From Pseudomonadota bacterium (lineage in GTDB: Bacteria > Campylobacterota > Campylobacteria > Campylobacterales > Sulfurimonadaceae), in NCBI GenBank assembly GCA_043797085.1, contig JAZDQA010000013.1, positions 128,001 through 192,000 on the forward strand: a stretch of DNA of 64,000 nt. The letters run 5' to 3'. Shown in pieces: positions 40,101 to 46,100 of this stretch. A program made the position numbers. The number at the start of each line of letters is the position of its first letter. The first letter of the stretch is position 1.

Positions 40101-43100
40101 AGAGGGGCTAAATGCATCTTGATAACAGACATCCCATACCCCATCTAACTCTCTCATCGCAACCCGTGCATCGGTAATCTCAACCGTAATACGAGTCCGT
40201 TCATCCTCATATTGTCCACCAACAGCAAGCTCTGTAATCACCTTTTTGTATGGTTCAAAGATTTCAGGATAAGGAAAATCTATCAAAGAAGCAACCAGCG
40301 CACCATCCAATTCGGGAGAATAAATTTTCAGCGTCATATTAGGAAAATATCTATCACGATAATATAGGCTAAGAAGAGTATTAAAACCAAGCCCGAAACA
40401 AATATCGATGATTTTGAGATTATTTTTTTCGCGATGGAGCACAAAAGCAGGCTCAATGTGTTTTTTGAGTGATTCGTTTAACGCTCCATCTTTGGTCGAG
40501 TGGTAGTGCTCATCGTATTCGCTGCTGTATGCCGTATAGCTCCCATCTTCGCTCTCAACCCAGTTCATCACAACCCTGCTCCCCACATGTGCAACTTCTT
40601 AGCCACAATAACCTCATACCCATCGATCAAATCGATAATCGCATTGATCGCTCGAAATTCGACCTGATCGAGGAGTGATTCGACCTCAGCAATACTCATC
40701 GAACCGTTTTTTTGGACGATAATAATCTCGGAAGCGTTGAGTAATGTGCGGTAAAGTAACTCTAAAAATTTGCGCGGTGATTCATGCAGATGCAACACAT
40801 CCTGCACGATAACAGCAGCGTAATCGCGTGGAACTCCCCCTGCGGGAGATTTATAATCTTTAATCATAAAGGTTTTATGAAAAGTGGTATGGGTTAGACT
40901 TTGATGATTCCCCGGAAAAAGTGAAAAATCGATCAACCCCTCATAAGAGATGAGAAAATCACCCAATTCCTCCGTCATAGCGTCCAAATGGCTTGTCGCT
41001 ACCATGATTTTCGTATGGGGTGTCGGATGGAGAAGTTGGGTAATCATAGTGCCAAATCGTGCAACTCGCGGAAAAGATACGCTTCAACAATATCATCAAT
41101 AGTACGTTGTGTATGAGCGACCAAAACCATCATCTGATGCTCGATAAACTCCATCACCGGCTCATAATTGCCCGTAATGATAACCGCATCAAGCCAACCG
41201 TCGATTTCACTGCGATCGGTATAAAATTTAATTTCGACCACTTGCCCTTCCTCAACCTCAACAGTCGCCCAGTAGGTTGCGGATAAAATTCCGACGAGTT
41301 CACTCTCTTGAGTATCATCGCCGTTCATCGGTAACAAAAGCAACATAATCAATCTACCTTTGAGAGATCAAGCTTCAGCGCTTCATTATCCATAATATCG
41401 ATGTCTTTTCGGAGCACTTCGGCAGCAATCGCTTTCGCATCTTCGAGGGAATGCATTGCACATGTTCCGCATTGGTAGAGGTTGAGTTCAGGAATATCAC
41501 TTTGTTTTTCAACGGCAATCACATCATGCATAGAGGCTTCCCACGCTTCAACCACTTCCTCTTCCGTAGGAGCACCGATAACGCTCATATAAAACCCAGT
41601 ACGGCAACCCATAGGAGAGAGATCGATAATCTCCGTTTTAGCTGAGTTAAGATGGTCACGCATAAAGCCTGCGAACAAATGCTCTAACGTATGAATCCCC
41701 TCTTGAGATAAGATTGCCTCATTCGGACGGCAAAAACGTAAATCAAAAACGGTAATATCATCCCCCTTTGGAGTTTTCATCCCCTTTGCGCGACGAACGG
41801 CAGGTGCGGGCATAATAGTGTGGTCTACGGTAAAGCTATCTAGTAATGGCATGTGCATCCTTAAAAAATTTATTTTAGTTGAGGCAATGGTAACATATTT
41901 CATCCTTGAGGCGCTATAATTTGGCAATTAATTAAGGAATATTATGAAAAGCCTCTTTGACGATTCCATCGCCACCCGATATCAAAACGATCCACTGGCA
42001 GTACGGGTCTACACCTCTCAATTACTGGGTCAAAACAAAGACTTAGTCTTGCATGGAGGGGGAAATACTTCCGTAAAAATCGATGGTGTACTGTACGTTA
42101 AAGGAAGCGGATGGAATCTCGACACCATTGAAAAAGAAGGATTTTCTCCCGTTGATTTAGCCACACTCATAGAGATGGCCTCTCGTGACACTCTAACTGA
42201 TACTCAAATGGTCAAAGAGCAACGCGCCGCAATGAGCGATCAAAGCTTTCCAAACCCTTCTATCGAAGCAATACTTCATGCCATCATCCCGTTCACCTTC
42301 GTCGATCACACTCATGCCGATGCCGTTGTCACTCTAAGCAATACCCCTAACGGAAAAGAAATACTCGAAGAGCTTTATGGTGAGAACATGGTTATTATTG
42401 ACTATGTGATGCCGGGATTTGAACTGGCACGTCATATTTATTTACAAACTTTAGATCTAAATTGGAAAAATATTGAGGGAATTATTTTACTCAATCACGG
42501 TGTCTTTACTTTTGATAATGATGCCAAAAAAGCATATGAAAAGATGATAACACTTGTCACAAAAGCTGAAGATTACTTACAACAAAATGTCACTTTTCTT
42601 TCTAATACGAGCAAGGGAAATATCGACGTGGAGATTATTCGGTCATTAGTTCACGAAGTCGGCGTACTGCGCGGGTGTGATATTTTTCCCATCTTTTTGG
42701 ATTCCGACCAAGCCAAAGCACTCAGCACTCGCCCCAATTTAGAGCGACTCATCAAACAAGGCGAACTCACCCCTGAACACGTCATTCGCATCAAGCCTTT
42801 TCCTGCTATTATTAATACCGATTGTGCAAAAGGGATAGAAATATTTAAAACCGAGTATCAGAATTATTTTGATAAAAACAGCAATGCTAACCATATCTGT
42901 CTCGATCTGGCTCCTCGCTATGCGATTGTTAAAGGATTGGGGGCAGTTGCGCTGGGTAAAGATGAGAAAGAGTCTCGAATCATCGCCGATATCGTAGAGC
43001 ATACCATTACTGCAATTTTAAGTGCCGAACAGCTTGGAGCATGGACGTCTCTTAGTCTTGCACAGATGTTTGAGATGGAGTATTGGGAATTAGAGCAAAT

Positions 43101-46100
43101 CAAATTAAAGAACGCCAAATGAGCAAAGCCCATTCGGCTACGCTCGCCGCTATGGCACTAAAGCTTGCCTCTGTCGAGGCAGATTAAATTACTGTACAAA
43201 GGAAAAAAATGAAAATAACCAAAAAAGTAACTTTTATCGCTAAAGAGGAGCATATTTCTACGGTCAAAAAACTTCTAGAAGACATGGTAGCCCCTTCACT
43301 CAAAGAGCCTGGCTGTCTCTTTTATTACATCTTCCAATCTCAAAACAACCCGAAGAAATTCTTTGCCGTTGAGTCATGGGAAAATAACGAAGCACTTGAG
43401 GGGCATAAGCACACGGAGCATTATGCATACTATAAATCGCACTATGAACCATTTGTTGAGAATAAGTATACAGAAGATTTGGAACTTTTAGATGAAGAGG
43501 TGTATGGGTTTTAAACTCCCGGAGCCTTCCACATAGGTTCTAACGTACTGTCACGGACAAGCTCCATCTGTTTGGCATAAACTCGTACCCATTTCTCTTT
43601 AACTTCTTGATAGGCATGAAAATTGGATTGATTTGGTTCATAACAACGCTCTATTTTTACAATATTTTGACCTGCTTCGTCAAAGCTTTTATAAATCCCT
43701 GCACCTATCCCGCACGCCATCGCTACACCCAATGCGGTGGCTTCTTTTACCACAGGGACTTTTACTTCCAATCCCGTAACATCGGCTAAAATCTGTGACC
43801 ATAACGCTCCATTTGACGCACCGCTTGCGAAGGTAAGCTGCGTTGGGGAAACACCGCTAAAGGCTTTTATGTTGTCAAGATTGATGGCACTTACGATGCA
43901 CGCATTTTCTTCCAACGCTCGAAACATGGAACCGATATTGTATTTGCTGCTGTCTAATCCAAGCCCAATAAACGATGGTGATGCGTGTATCCACTCTCCA
44001 TACTTCATGCTGTCGCTAAAAACAGGGATAATTCCATACGAACCGACGGGAATCTGTGATGCTAACGCTTCGAGCTGCGCGTAGCTTTTACCGCCACCTA
44101 ACGCATCTCGAAACCATCGCATCACAAGACCTGTAAAAAAAGTAATTCCCTCTGCTTGACTCATATCACGTACAACATGAGGATTTACACGCAATAGCAT
44201 ATCTCCTGAAAGTACTGTGTCTGAGGGTATATTGACCACTTGCTGCCAAAAACTTCCCCCTAACACAACCGCATCACCCAACTTATTTGCCCGAAGTCCT
44301 GCCGTACCGATTTGAACGTCACCACCCCCCATAACTACCAGAGTTTCAGGGCTTAAACCTGTCTCGTTGGAGGCTTGAAGGCTTATTTTTCCTAGAATAT
44401 CACCGCTTTCCAAGATAGGCACAAACAAATCTTTTAATCCGCATTGGCTGAACTGTTGCTTATCCCAATCACGATTTTTGAGATTAAACGCCCCTGCCGT
44501 CCCTGCATTGGAAGGCTCACTTGCTAATTCCCCACTGAGTTTAAACAGTATCCAGTCACTTATCATCGTAAAATAAGTTGCTTTTTCATACAAAGACAGC
44601 TGATTGTTTTTTAACCATAAAAGTCTTGGAGCTGCAGAAAGAGCAAATGTTTGCCCGCTTGATTGATAGAATTCTCTTTCCATATCAGGGTACGTATTTT
44701 TTAGAGTGCCAACTTCTAATCCAGAGCGACTATCGACATTTGCTACACCCCAAAGCTCATTCTTATCCTTATCATAAACGATAACTCCCTCACGCATGCT
44801 CGAAGCGGATAGCGCAATTATCTCTTTAGCATTTATCCCTGCTTTTACAACAACTTCTTTTATGCATTGTTTTGCCAATTCCCATCCATGGATAAAATCA
44901 AAGCCCATCGACCCTGCAATATTCTCTGACGCAATATGATTCCATTCATGTTGTGCAATCTCGATTTGATTTCCCAGCGTATCAAAAATGACAGCACGGA
45001 CACTTCCGGTTCCTGCATCTATACTTAAAAGATATTGCTTCATTTCATCTCTTTCATATTCACATCAAATTTCAATGAACTATTTTTAGTATTTTTTTGA
45101 TCAATCGACTTGATTTCCACATTACAAATACTGTCTTTAAGATTTTCTGCAAGAATCAGTAATTCTTCATGAGTATCGCGTATTGCAATTCCACGTGCAG
45201 AACATCCGACGACTCCACGGTTATTATAGGTCATTCTGTACATATAGTTCATTATCCAATACATTTATTAGTAATGGTAAAGCAAAGAAGATTCCAAGGA
45301 TTGAATAAAAAGAAAGTGCAAGCGTTAAAAGCGCTTGCTGATTACGCTAAAAATGCATATGTTATTTATTTTAATTCGATTAATGTATTAGTGAAATGTT
45401 ATCGACAGTTCGTAAACTGATTTAAGAAATACTATTTGAGGAGGGAATAAGGACAATCTCTCAAAAGAGAGAATTGTGAAAAATTATACGCGCGCTTCTT
45501 CACGACGTTGGAGCTGTTCCCATTTCAAATCGACACGTGTTTGCCACTCATCGATAAGATATTCGTATTGCTTAGTGAAAAGGTGTTTGAAACGCCCTTG
45601 AGCACCTAAATAATCACGAACCGGGATAATATTTTTCGGACGATACGTGATGTTTAACTCTGTACCGTTAATGATTTCATACAACGGGAATACCAAAGAA
45701 TCGGTAGCAAGATCGGTAATAGCGATCGTATCTTCCGGTGCAAATTTCCACTCAGTTGTACAGGCAGAGATAGCATTAATAAATACTGGACCCTCTGCTG
45801 CAAACCCTTTTTGAATTTTTGCGACCATGTCTTTCCATTTACTTGGAGAAACCTGAGCGACGTACGGAGCACCGTGTGCTGCCATGATCGCCATCATGTC
45901 TTTTTTATTGCGCTTTTCACCGTAGCTTACGCGTCCTGCAGGTGTTGTCGTAGCCGATGCACCGATTGGAGTTGAACTTGAGCGCTGTCCACCTGTGTTT
46001 GCATACACTTCATTGTCCAAACAAACGTACATCATGTTATGTCCGCGTTCAAAACAACCTGAAATCCATTGGAATCCGATGTCATAAGTCGCACCATCGC

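Follow-up and report, generated by a model that had tools for sequence, protein, structure and literature searches.

The products of LuxS are homocysteine and DPD, the precursor of autoinducer-2 (AI-2), and a luxS gene that lies close to an AI-2 kinase gene (lsrK) in a genome with no recognised AI-2 importer raises the question of what becomes of the DPD that the cell itself makes. Such a locus lies in the window, by which we mean the whole 64,000-nt stretch of DNA that was analysed. The host, placed in the Sulfurimonadaceae by the genome-wide survey's note, belongs to Sulfuricurvum and not to Sulfurimonas, and its lifestyle is that of a sulfur oxidiser in groundwater.

Layout and metatranscriptome coverage of the locus

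The four open reading frames reported by the survey were recovered at their places, and the features are as follows (window coordinates).

41349..41852, minus strand: luxS, S-ribosylhomocysteine lyase (NF002602, Pfam LuxS)
41853..41943, no strand: divergent luxS/Ald spacer, 91 nt (alignment of 20 spacers)
41944..43122, plus strand: Ald, class II aldolase-like protein, 392 aa (Pfam Aldolase_II, PDB 3m4r, AF2/Foldseek)
43123..43208, no strand: Ald-ABM spacer with a short dispersed repeat (depth spike, loose ends, genome copies)
43209..43514, plus strand: ABM-fold protein, 101 aa (Pfam ABM)
43511..45043, minus strand: lsrK, 510-aa FGGY kinase in the autoinducer-2 kinase family (NF008187)

The genes had been described as running on into lsrK; instead, ABM and lsrK face each other and their 3' ends overlap by 4 nt, so that the four genes make up at least three transcription units. 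luxS heads the string luxS-hyp102-hyp159-mnmC2, whose reading frames overlap by 4 nt. In the luxS/Ald spacer, a TATAAT is kept about 35 nt upstream of the Ald ATG across the 20 aligned spacers, and neither an Rfam family nor a riboswitch was found there. A separate upstream region of 440 nt, following porB, belongs to lsrK; the terminator-like and promoter-like sites in it showed no excess over chance. The repeat in the Ald-ABM spacer has 25 other partial copies in the genome, is absent or different in relatives, where this spacer measures 2-140 nt, and is outside the pathway. All four genes were covered by groundwater metatranscriptome contigs of at least 99% identity, these contigs being strandless, from one run of one library and possibly affected by DNA carry-over.

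Recognised and missing functions

LuxS scored 299 bits on NF002602 (cut-off 197) and 192 against 27 on Pfam LuxS (PF02664), and LuxS was present in 193 of the 201 genomes of the family. The host genome, in which absences were sought, is 95.86% complete in 14 contigs. SAH hydrolase and MtnA (IF-2B/MtnA family) were not found in it, nor was MtnK by tblastn with the MtnK of a relative, and an MTAN/Pfs-type nucleosidase was present. S-adenosylhomocysteine (SAH) is proposed to be processed through Pfs and LuxS; these enzymes were identified, and other routes for SAH were not found.

The survey's identification of a true lsrK in this cluster was confirmed. The window kinase scored 728.3 bits on NF008187 (cut-off 528) in a full-length match (model positions 3-520 of 521), with XylB as the next-best model at 161 bits, and was identical to E. 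coli K-12 LsrK at 49% over 527 aa by tblastn and at 49.5% over 521 aa by blastp. Across the lineage the kinases share 50-56% identity with E. coli LsrK, and their second-best models are XylB or GlpK, well above FucK and RhaB. Similarity at the equivalog level suggests that LsrK would phosphorylate DPD, at C5; the accessible part of PMC8028047 gave neither a substrate-bound LsrK structure nor a list of pocket residues.

The ABM protein had been called LsrG-type. It scored 58 bits on Pfam ABM but 33.3 bits on the LsrG model NF007791 (cut-off 135), and the generic structure PA3566 (E 5e-12) was closer to it than LsrG (E 0.006 and 0.04), which excludes it as an LsrG equivalog. Its identity to E. 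coli LsrG is 24%, and E55, H66, H71 and Y72 are invariant; the first two of these correspond in the alignment to E. coli LsrG E54 and H65, which we take to be catalytically important, and the same residues also occur in generic ABM proteins. Because of its fold, these common Glu and His residues and its tight linkage to lsrK, we propose that ABM may be a P-DPD isomerase, an analogue of LsrG.

That the genome lacks an Lsr importer, the repressor and LsrF was borne out by both kinds of search. No protein of the DeoC (13 of 14 controls positive), BPD_transp_2 or SorC/Sugar-bind families was found in it, no tblastn match at 1e-3 came from E. coli LsrR, LsrC, LsrD, LsrB, LsrF or LsrG, and LsrA retrieved generic ABC ATPases only. 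The sole Peripla_BP_4 protein is weakly RbsB-like and coupled to a sensor protein. The LsrF equivalog NF006081 was found in 0 of the 201 family genomes in a search without a positive control, though the model gives 504 bits, against 297, to the LsrF of another locus (L059).

The aldolase-like protein and its conserved partners

Ald carries Pfam Aldolase_II (PF00596; residues 24-211, 79 bits against 22) and is the only Aldolase_II protein of its genome. It corresponds to the N-terminal part, about 400 aa, of the RhaE/YuxG-type bifunctional aldolase/SDR proteins: on the model of the PRK08324 group it scored 426 bits against 831 over positions 1-401 of 657, and the N-terminal ~400 residues of RhaEW and B. 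subtilis YuxG (PRK08324/TIGR02632) are homologous to it end to end. Unlike these proteins, it is without the SDR half, of which no homologue above the generic level was found in the genome, has no rhamnose genes nearby and reached 199 bits on the model specific to rhamnulose (cut-off 568). PDB 3m4r matched Ald with an E of 2e-41, and the AF2 model (pLDDT 91.9) was matched by Foldseek to 3m4r, and over its N-terminal half to FucA, AraD and DrdA. The motifs PS-I-E108, H122-T-H124 and H185-G were invariant in 28 relatives. Paired with FucA by motif, as MAFFT mis-set the middle region, they keep counterparts of FucA E73, presumably catalytic, and of H92, H94 and H155, which we take to bind the metal.

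In the tree, 24 stand-alone Alds formed one clade (82/98), apart from the fusions linked to MtnK/MtnA. The two groups have identical active-site columns and differ in just three group-specific columns, all conservative, so that Ald might act on ordinary 5-deoxy- or 5-methylthio-ribulose 1-phosphate and not on a phosphate derived from DPD. Nor is the Ald family tied to AI-2 alone: a fused paralog lies behind mtnK-mtnA within an operon that also carries lsrK, and in L059 and L165 a true LsrF comes after an Ald/SDR fusion. One genome (G200) has both forms, a stand-alone Ald overlapping lsrK by 4 nt and a separate Ald/SDR fusion after mtnK-mtnA.

A new result is that LsrK, ABM and Ald together act like one conserved module. 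Among the 201 genomes of the family, which are kin and make a 2x2 table overstate significance, the Ald family and LsrK occurred together in 141, LsrK only in 3, Ald only in 8 and neither in 49 (LsrK exceeded its cut-off in 141). All 11 discordant genomes are assemblies of at least 170 contigs, and of the 14 genomes in the host genus that are LsrK-negative, 11 are also without Ald. The genes ABM-Ald-LsrK are tightly spaced and co-directional in L064, L066 and L072, and a further 53 Campylobacterota loci include 28 with such an operon and no luxS in it, the hosts being Sulfurovum, Sulfurospirillum, Sulfurimonas and others; ABM was present in 42 of these 53 loci and ABM together with LsrK in 35. 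Where Ald stands apart from lsrK, LsrK was still encoded in all five genomes tested (743-863 bits). The earlier proposal that Ald works with LsrK and ABM is thus now much better supported, by near-perfect co-occurrence, by operon structure and by the genomes in which the genes are split.

The survey's inclusion of luxS in the module did not generalise: luxS adjoins Ald in 52 of 63 loci, and this adjacency is confined to Sulfuricurvum plus a small number of related genera. The 49 family genomes that have LuxS without the module indicate that the module is dispensable. The small partner of LsrK appears to swap between ABM and a cupin. In relatives, the neighbours of lsrK include metK and mqnE, and in some the module is clustered with metK, mtnK, mtnA, the Ald/SDR fusion and mqnE.

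A proposed route for DPD and its alternatives

We propose, at about even confidence, that LsrK, ABM and Ald form one pathway, a stripped-down Lsr-type catabolism of AI-2 in which DPD would yield DHAP and a C2 unit and Ald would take the place of LsrF. Pfs/MTAN and LuxS would convert SAH into homocysteine and DPD, LsrK would convert DPD into P-DPD, and ABM would isomerise P-DPD to 3-hydroxy-2,4-pentanedione 5-phosphate (P-HPD), like LsrG. The metal site of Ald would then hold the DHAP-like end of P-HPD and sever its bond with the acetyl carbon. In relation to 5-deoxyribulose 1-phosphate, P-HPD is the 4-oxo analogue, and its retro-aldol cleavage proper is impossible without hydration or a prior reduction; if Ald does cleave it, the simplest course would be a cut at the hydrated (gem-diol) carbonyl, giving DHAP and acetate. 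The fused Ald/SDR paralog behind MtnK/MtnA very likely cleaves a substrate of the 5-deoxyribulose 1-phosphate type, and an acid product in place of an aldehyde would explain the loss of the SDR half from the LsrK-linked Ald. Since no importer was found, DPD made by the cell itself is probably the main substrate, and the cell probably feeds this AI-2 precursor back into central metabolism, in what may be a closed cytoplasmic loop whose likely benefit is the recovery of carbon and the removal of a reactive dicarbonyl.

More tentatively, and with some doubt, we suggest that Ald may be an enzyme of a new kind, a metal-dependent, CoA-independent C-C hydrolase that converts hydrated P-HPD into DHAP and acetate and, with LsrK and ABM, closes the activated methyl cycle within the cell. 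If this is true, the Campylobacterota that bear the module would release little or no AI-2 despite having LuxS, and in relatives the Ald family would be where the ribose remnants left by all three SAM by-products end up, SAH arriving via LuxS/LsrK, and MTA and 5'-deoxyadenosine via MtnK/MtnA. No published description of such an importer-less luxS/LsrK/ABM/Ald system was found in the literature.

The proposed pathway resembles the Lsr system of E. coli and Salmonella in its kinase of the same curated family, its small ABM-fold partner and the products expected at its end, DHAP and a C2 unit. It differs from that system, which has LsrACDB, LsrR, LsrF and an LsrG proper, in that the host has no importer, LsrR or LsrF and its ABM protein falls below the LsrG cut-off. 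The third enzyme of the Lsr system is LsrF, a class I (Schiff-base) thiolase, whereas that of the host is predicted to be the metal-dependent class II aldolase-like Ald, which would probably give acetate, and not acetyl-CoA, as the C2 product. Lsr genes, moreover, sit with a sugar-type ABC transporter, and those of the host with genes of the SAM cycle.

The known role of LsrK, as far as PMC3420918 covers it, is in the use of imported AI-2 by the Lsr system of E. coli and Salmonella, and the module may likewise catabolise external AI-2 in place of the cell's own DPD, bringing it in by a transporter that has escaped recognition and serving to forage or to quench quorum sensing as in enterics. 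In one subclade Ald shares an operon with an MFS gene, which overlaps it in L049 and stands before it in L051 and L053; this is a hint of uptake in these organisms. The host genome encodes, elsewhere, an AI-2E family protein as well as the RbsB-like binding protein. We nevertheless consider this reading quite improbable: no transporter gene was conserved beside the module across the 63 + 15 + 80 loci examined, the host genome yielded no homologue of the L049-type MFS protein in addition to lacking the BPD_transp_2 permease and matches to LsrB, LsrC and LsrD, no LsrR-type regulator is there to make expression responsive to AI-2, and the neighbourhood is one of SAM metabolism (luxS, metK, mqnE, mtnK, mtnA), not of sugar uptake.

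The chief alternative, though unlikely, is that DPD is not the substrate and that the module disposes of 5-deoxyribose produced by radical SAM enzymes, of 5-methylthioribose or of both, in the manner of fucose or rhamnose breakdown: ABM (or, in some genomes, the cupin) would make the ketose, the LsrK-like kinase would phosphorylate it, and Ald would release DHAP and an aldehyde from the 1-phosphate. According to the accessible parts of PMC6079011 and PMC10986504, the DHAP shunt or 5-deoxyribose salvage pathway uses MtnN with MtnK/DrdK or MtnP, then MtnA/DrdI and Ald2/DrdA, and a kinase, an isomerase and a class II aldolase thus turn a SAM-derived C5 by-product into DHAP there as well. DrdA, a 5-deoxyribulose-1-phosphate aldolase (6btd, 6btg), is among the structural neighbours of Ald, and within the same bacterial family the Ald/SDR paralog is wired to mtnK-mtnA with the same active-site columns. 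A stand-alone Ald directly follows mtnA in L167 and L168, the Ald family lies beside mtnA in 5 of 27 non-Campylobacterota loci, and ABM and cupin seem interchangeable beside LsrK. In the host, 5-deoxyribose has no recognised fate, MTAN being present and MtnA and MtnK missing. The shunt, however, needs MtnK or MtnP plus MtnA; the host kinase is an FGGY LsrK instead of an MtnK type, its candidate isomerase is the ABM protein instead of MtnA/DrdI, and Ald, whose C-terminal half is conserved, has ~390 aa compared with ~210 aa in Ald2/DrdA. The kinases also score 200-350 bits above the cut-off for AI-2 kinases; XylB, gluconokinase and GlpK come next among the models, ahead of RhaB, with FucK lower still for the window kinase. 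LsrK and MtnK/MtnA are not alternatives, since 31 of 39 MtnA-positive genomes also have LsrK, and lsrK, mtnK and mtnA share one cluster in L083-L086, where on this reading they would be redundant. Ald follows LsrK and not MtnA, as 7 MtnA-positive genomes have no Ald-family gene.

Ald could also be, instead of the cleaving enzyme, an enediol-type isomerase, epimerase or decarboxylase acting on a phosphorylated C5 compound, like AraD, MtnB or YgbL of its own superfamily, with an unlinked enzyme finishing the route. Epimerases, dehydratases, decarboxylases and even dioxygenases are among its fold-search matches, and the LsrF that follows the Ald/SDR fusion in L059 and L165 would itself cleave. 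We regard this as the reading with the least to recommend it, since no known cleaving enzyme is at hand, with the DeoC family absent from the genome and LsrF from the family search, and since the aldolase acid/base Glu and all three His are kept in Ald.

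Gene cluster around luxS and lsrK

The genome-wide survey's note grouped luxS with genes for a stand-alone class II aldolase-like protein (Ald), a small ABM-fold protein (ABM) and LsrK, and all four open reading frames were present in the window at the following positions.

41349–41852, (−): luxS; NCBIfam equivalog at 299 bits (cut-off 197), Pfam LuxS also passed
41944–43122, (+): Ald, 392 aa; Pfam Aldolase_II at residues 24–211
43209–43514, (+): ABM, 101 aa; Pfam ABM protein
43511–45043, (−): lsrK; NF008187 autoinducer-2 kinase equivalog at 728 bits (cut-off 528), matched end to end

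The luxS and Ald genes are divergent with 91 nt between them, Ald and ABM are co-directional, and ABM and lsrK are convergent with ends overlapping by 4 nt. The second-best NCBIfam model of the kinase was XylB (161 bits), and the kinase is 49.5% identical to LsrK of Escherichia coli K-12. Ald covers positions 1–401 of the 657-position ‘bifunctional aldolase/short-chain dehydrogenase’ (Ald/SDR) model and thus represents the N-terminal part of this fusion family without the dehydrogenase half. ABM, which the survey's note had taken for an LsrG-type protein, cannot be recognised as LsrG: on the LsrG model it scored 33 bits (cut-off 135), its identity to E. coli LsrG is 24%, and among known structures it is closer to generic ABM proteins than to LsrG. 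In E. coli LsrG, E54 and H65 reportedly matter for catalysis (Marques et al. 2011); ABM has both at the matching positions, but so do generic ABM proteins. Other roles, tied to dicarbonyls, are described for ABM proteins near LsrG (PMC12274486).

In the string luxS-hyp102-hyp159-mnmC2 (39825–41852, −), each gene overlaps the preceding one by at least 4 nt, indicating that luxS is co-transcribed with an S-adenosylhomocysteine (SAH)-producing enzyme, the MnmC2-type SAM-dependent tRNA methyltransferase encoded last. The two proteins between them (102 and 159 aa) had no family match, and the string is kept beside luxS across Sulfurimonadaceae loci. Directly upstream of lsrK lies a pyruvate:ferredoxin oxidoreductase-like four-gene operon in porGDAB order (45484–48655, −), whose position is kept in most Sulfurimonadaceae loci. 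No riboswitch or other known RNA was found in the cluster or in eight related loci, and promoter and terminator consensus scans gave no excess over the shuffled expectation.

One groundwater metatranscriptome library contained contigs matching luxS, Ald, ABM, the junction of ABM with lsrK, and the 5′ end of lsrK at ≥99% identity; these contigs indicate presence in an RNA library, give neither strand nor level, and may include DNA carry-over. No contig of this library fell on lsrK at 44193–44765, and two further RNA runs of the same study (X21 and X22) had none on the window, neither of which is proof of absence. The Ald–ABM spacer (43123–43208) contains a short (30–50 nt) dispersed repeat; 25 other partial copies are spread over most of the genome's contigs, and in metagenome and metatranscriptome contigs the repeat causes loose ends and a spike in depth.

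LsrK, ABM and Ald as one module

Among 201 genomes of the family, LsrK was above the cut-off in 141 and matched at E ≤ 1e-50 in 144, the Ald family was present in 149 and LuxS in 193, and the LsrF equivalog was found in none. According to the transcribed genome lists, LsrK and Ald occurred together in 141 genomes, LsrK alone in 3, Ald alone in 8 and neither in 49, and all 11 discordant genomes were assemblies of at least 170 contigs. These relatives are non-independent, and the pattern repeats inside genera: LsrK and Ald were found in 39 and 42 of 53 genomes of the organism's own genus, in 46 and 45 of 54 genomes of genus g2, and each in 0 of 10 genomes of genus g11, which nevertheless has LuxS. 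Since 49 LuxS-positive genomes are without the module, it is optional.

In other genera of the family, ABM, Ald and LsrK form a tight co-directional operon with luxS not nearby (loci L064, L066 and L072). The neighbourhood survey was anchored on Ald, and its second set comprised the best 80 of 589 Ald loci, 27 from other phyla and 53 from Campylobacterota (Sulfurovum, Sulfurospirillum, Sulfurimonas, Arcobacteraceae, Nitratifractor and others). Within these best 80 loci, the SDR half was missing in 53/53 Campylobacterota loci, which carried LsrK in 40, ABM in 42, both in 35 and the tight ABM-Ald-LsrK order in 28; in the other phyla, the SDR fusion was present in 27/27 loci, and neither LsrK nor the module's ABM was in the flank of any of the 27. 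Where Ald lay away from lsrK, LsrK was still present in all five genomes tested, and ABM lies directly upstream of lsrK even with Ald elsewhere (L065, L076 and L083–L086). LsrK, ABM and Ald are thus one module, and the case for a role of ABM rests on this linkage. The luxS gene was divergent and at most 300 nt from Ald in 52/63 loci of the first set, mostly Sulfuricurvum, compared to only 4/53 Campylobacterota loci among the best 80 in which luxS was present, so that the module is older and luxS adjacency was added to it in particular lineages. The survey's four-gene reading was partly supported: co-occurrence and gene order back the partnership of Ald with LsrK and ABM, but not luxS as a constant member or ABM as LsrG.

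A small cupin (98–125 aa) is encoded directly downstream of lsrK in L071, L074, L092 and L161, and no ABM gene was seen in the L074 and L161 loci, which suggests that a cupin can serve as LsrK's small partner in place of ABM.

Ald, its fused paralogs and the wider setting in SAM metabolism

The AlphaFold2 model of Ald, built on 28 relatives, was confident (pLDDT 91.9). Foldseek matches were restricted to the N-terminal ~220 residues and included 3m4r, L-fuculose-phosphate aldolases, L-ribulose-5-phosphate 4-epimerase, YgbL and the 5-deoxyribulose-1-phosphate aldolase DrdA; the C-terminal half, in which H279, R282, K284, Y305 and other residues are conserved, had no structural match in the PDB search. 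The invariant Ald motifs PS-x-E108, H122-x-H124 and H185-G correspond to E73, H92, H94 and H155 of E. coli FucA, residues with catalytic roles in that enzyme. This mapping was made by motif, because an insertion led the automatic MAFFT alignment to mis-set the E73/H92/H94 region. Just three group-specific columns, all conservative, differ between stand-alone and fused Alds, so that the sequence indicates no changed active site and the substrate cannot be read from it.

In the maximum-likelihood tree, 24 stand-alone Alds fell in one clade (UFboot 82, SH-aLRT 98), and the fusions linked to MtnK and MtnA formed a separate clade (100/99). Four g2 genomes carry a single co-directional cluster ABM-LsrK-MetK-MtnK-MtnA-Ald/SDR fusion-MqnE, confirmed by NCBIfam for L083 and assigned in L084–L086 from identical ORF sizes and order. 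In L087 (G200:C232), ABM-MetK-MtnK-MtnA-Ald/SDR is followed by a stand-alone Ald (441 aa) overlapping LsrK and then by MqnE, and the two Ald copies of this genome were placed one in each clade. In L059, an uncultured deltaproteobacterial locus, a true LsrF (504 bits, cut-off 297) comes after the fusion, and the same pairing occurs in L165, a hint that the SDR half might convert the LsrF substrate to and from 5-deoxyribulose 1-phosphate. In both of these Desulfobacterales-type loci (L059:6935–10010 and L165), LsrF lies directly behind the fusion and LsrK is not in the flank.

In genome G146 (L075:10860–13586), a single 908-aa frame directly behind ABM-LsrK-MetK combines an Ald domain with what remains of a truncated SDR and with a complete radical SAM domain of MqnE. 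The tree places this Ald among the fused forms, and the frame looks like a decayed Ald/SDR fusion reading through into mqnE.

Proposed fate of DPD and competing explanations

In the Sulfuricurvum genome (95.86% complete, 14 contigs), no SAH hydrolase, MtnA or MtnK was found, and there is one MTAN/Pfs-type nucleosidase. Pfs and LuxS are thus the sole recognised route from SAH, and the AI-2 precursor DPD must be made. The survey's note had also reported the lack of an LsrACD permease, LsrR and LsrF, which is borne out for this genome by the absence of DeoC, BPD_transp_2 and SorC families and of tblastn matches to E. coli LsrR, LsrB, LsrC, LsrD, LsrF and LsrG. Its only Aldolase_II gene is the Ald of the cluster. 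With neither importer nor LsrR, the module probably acts on DPD made by the cell itself.

We propose the following pathway. LuxS yields DPD, as follows from the identified enzyme; LsrK, judging from its family membership, would phosphorylate it; and ABM, given its fold and linkage, may isomerise the product (P-DPD) to 3-hydroxy-2,4-pentanedione 5-phosphate (P-HPD). P-HPD is the 4-oxo analogue of 5-deoxyribulose 1-phosphate, on which the MtnA-linked paralog is expected to act, and a class II aldolase would be able to take up the DHAP-like end of P-HPD at its metal site. For a plain retro-aldol reaction, the cleaved carbon must carry a hydroxyl. The hydrated carbonyl of P-HPD could supply it, and cleavage by Ald would then give DHAP and acetate. 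Such a cleavage would explain why the active site of Ald need not change, and acetate as the product would explain the loss of the aldehyde-handling dehydrogenase half in the LsrK-linked clade. Carbon recovery in an autotroph and removal of a reactive dicarbonyl are both plausible benefits; the portion of PMC12274486 available to us describes ABM proteins near LsrG with other roles, tied to dicarbonyls. On sequence grounds, the system is best described as a putatively new variant of Lsr-type AI-2 catabolism, widespread in Campylobacterota, with a putative, previously unrecognised last enzyme.

Disposal of 5-deoxyribose or methylthioribose by the module would fit the other wiring of the Ald family and the missing MtnK and MtnA of this genome, but it appears unlikely given the strong LsrK identity of the kinase and the sharing of one cluster by lsrK and mtnK-mtnA. 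Had LsrK and MtnA excluded each other, this disposal would have been favoured, but 31 of the 39 MtnA-positive genomes in the family set have LsrK, and 7 are without any Ald-family gene. Uptake of external AI-2 via another carrier, to which an MFS gene overlapping Ald in one subclade might point, is quite improbable, since the module shows no conserved association with a carrier and the MFS of that subclade was not found in the Sulfuricurvum genome. That Ald is an isomerase or epimerase instead of a cleaving enzyme is very doubtful, as this would leave no other cleaving enzyme visible. We favour, with moderate confidence, consumption of the cell's own DPD by LsrK, ABM and Ald.

It has long been debated whether most bacteria with LuxS use AI-2 as a signal or produce it mainly as a metabolic by-product. 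In groundwater, vents and sediments, chemolithoautotrophic Campylobacterota are key oxidisers of sulfur; with the module, widespread and compact in them, cells would be able to use up their own DPD while lacking uptake and sensing parts, making the by-product view directly testable by comparing AI-2 release between strains with and without it. Cultures of vent Epsilonproteobacteria reportedly show AI-2 activity (Perez-Rodriguez and co-workers, 2015), which would argue against a fully closed loop if those strains carry the module. The proposal would also give a function to a branch of the aldolase/SDR family that is large and so far uncharacterised, and would connect AI-2 catabolism with the salvage of other SAM by-products in both chemistry and genome context. 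The literature search returned no paper containing both ‘lsrK’ and ‘Sulfurimonas’, and none among the matches listed linked lsrK to a class II aldolase, a DHAP shunt, 5-deoxyribose, mtnK/mtnA or Campylobacterota names. The luxS/Ald/ABM/lsrK arrangement is not mentioned in the available part of a survey of Lsr homologues (PMC3420918), and the part of PMC8028047 consulted gives no DPD-pocket residues of LsrK.

In three loci of other Campylobacterales (L049, L051 and L053), a stand-alone Ald lies behind an MFS_1_like transporter gene, with LsrK elsewhere in the genome. A 479–500 aa protein behind Ald in L049 and L053, by appearance an exported lipoprotein-like hydrolase, had no family match and was judged unrelated. 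The sole Peripla_BP_4 protein of the Sulfuricurvum genome (L171, G000:C11:133456–137214; 306 aa) is weakly RbsB-like (108 bits vs. 337), with only 23% identity to LsrB over 82 aa. Its gene overlaps the start of that for a >474-aa sensor protein, not an ABC permease, and it is possibly a sensor of a sugar-like ligand.
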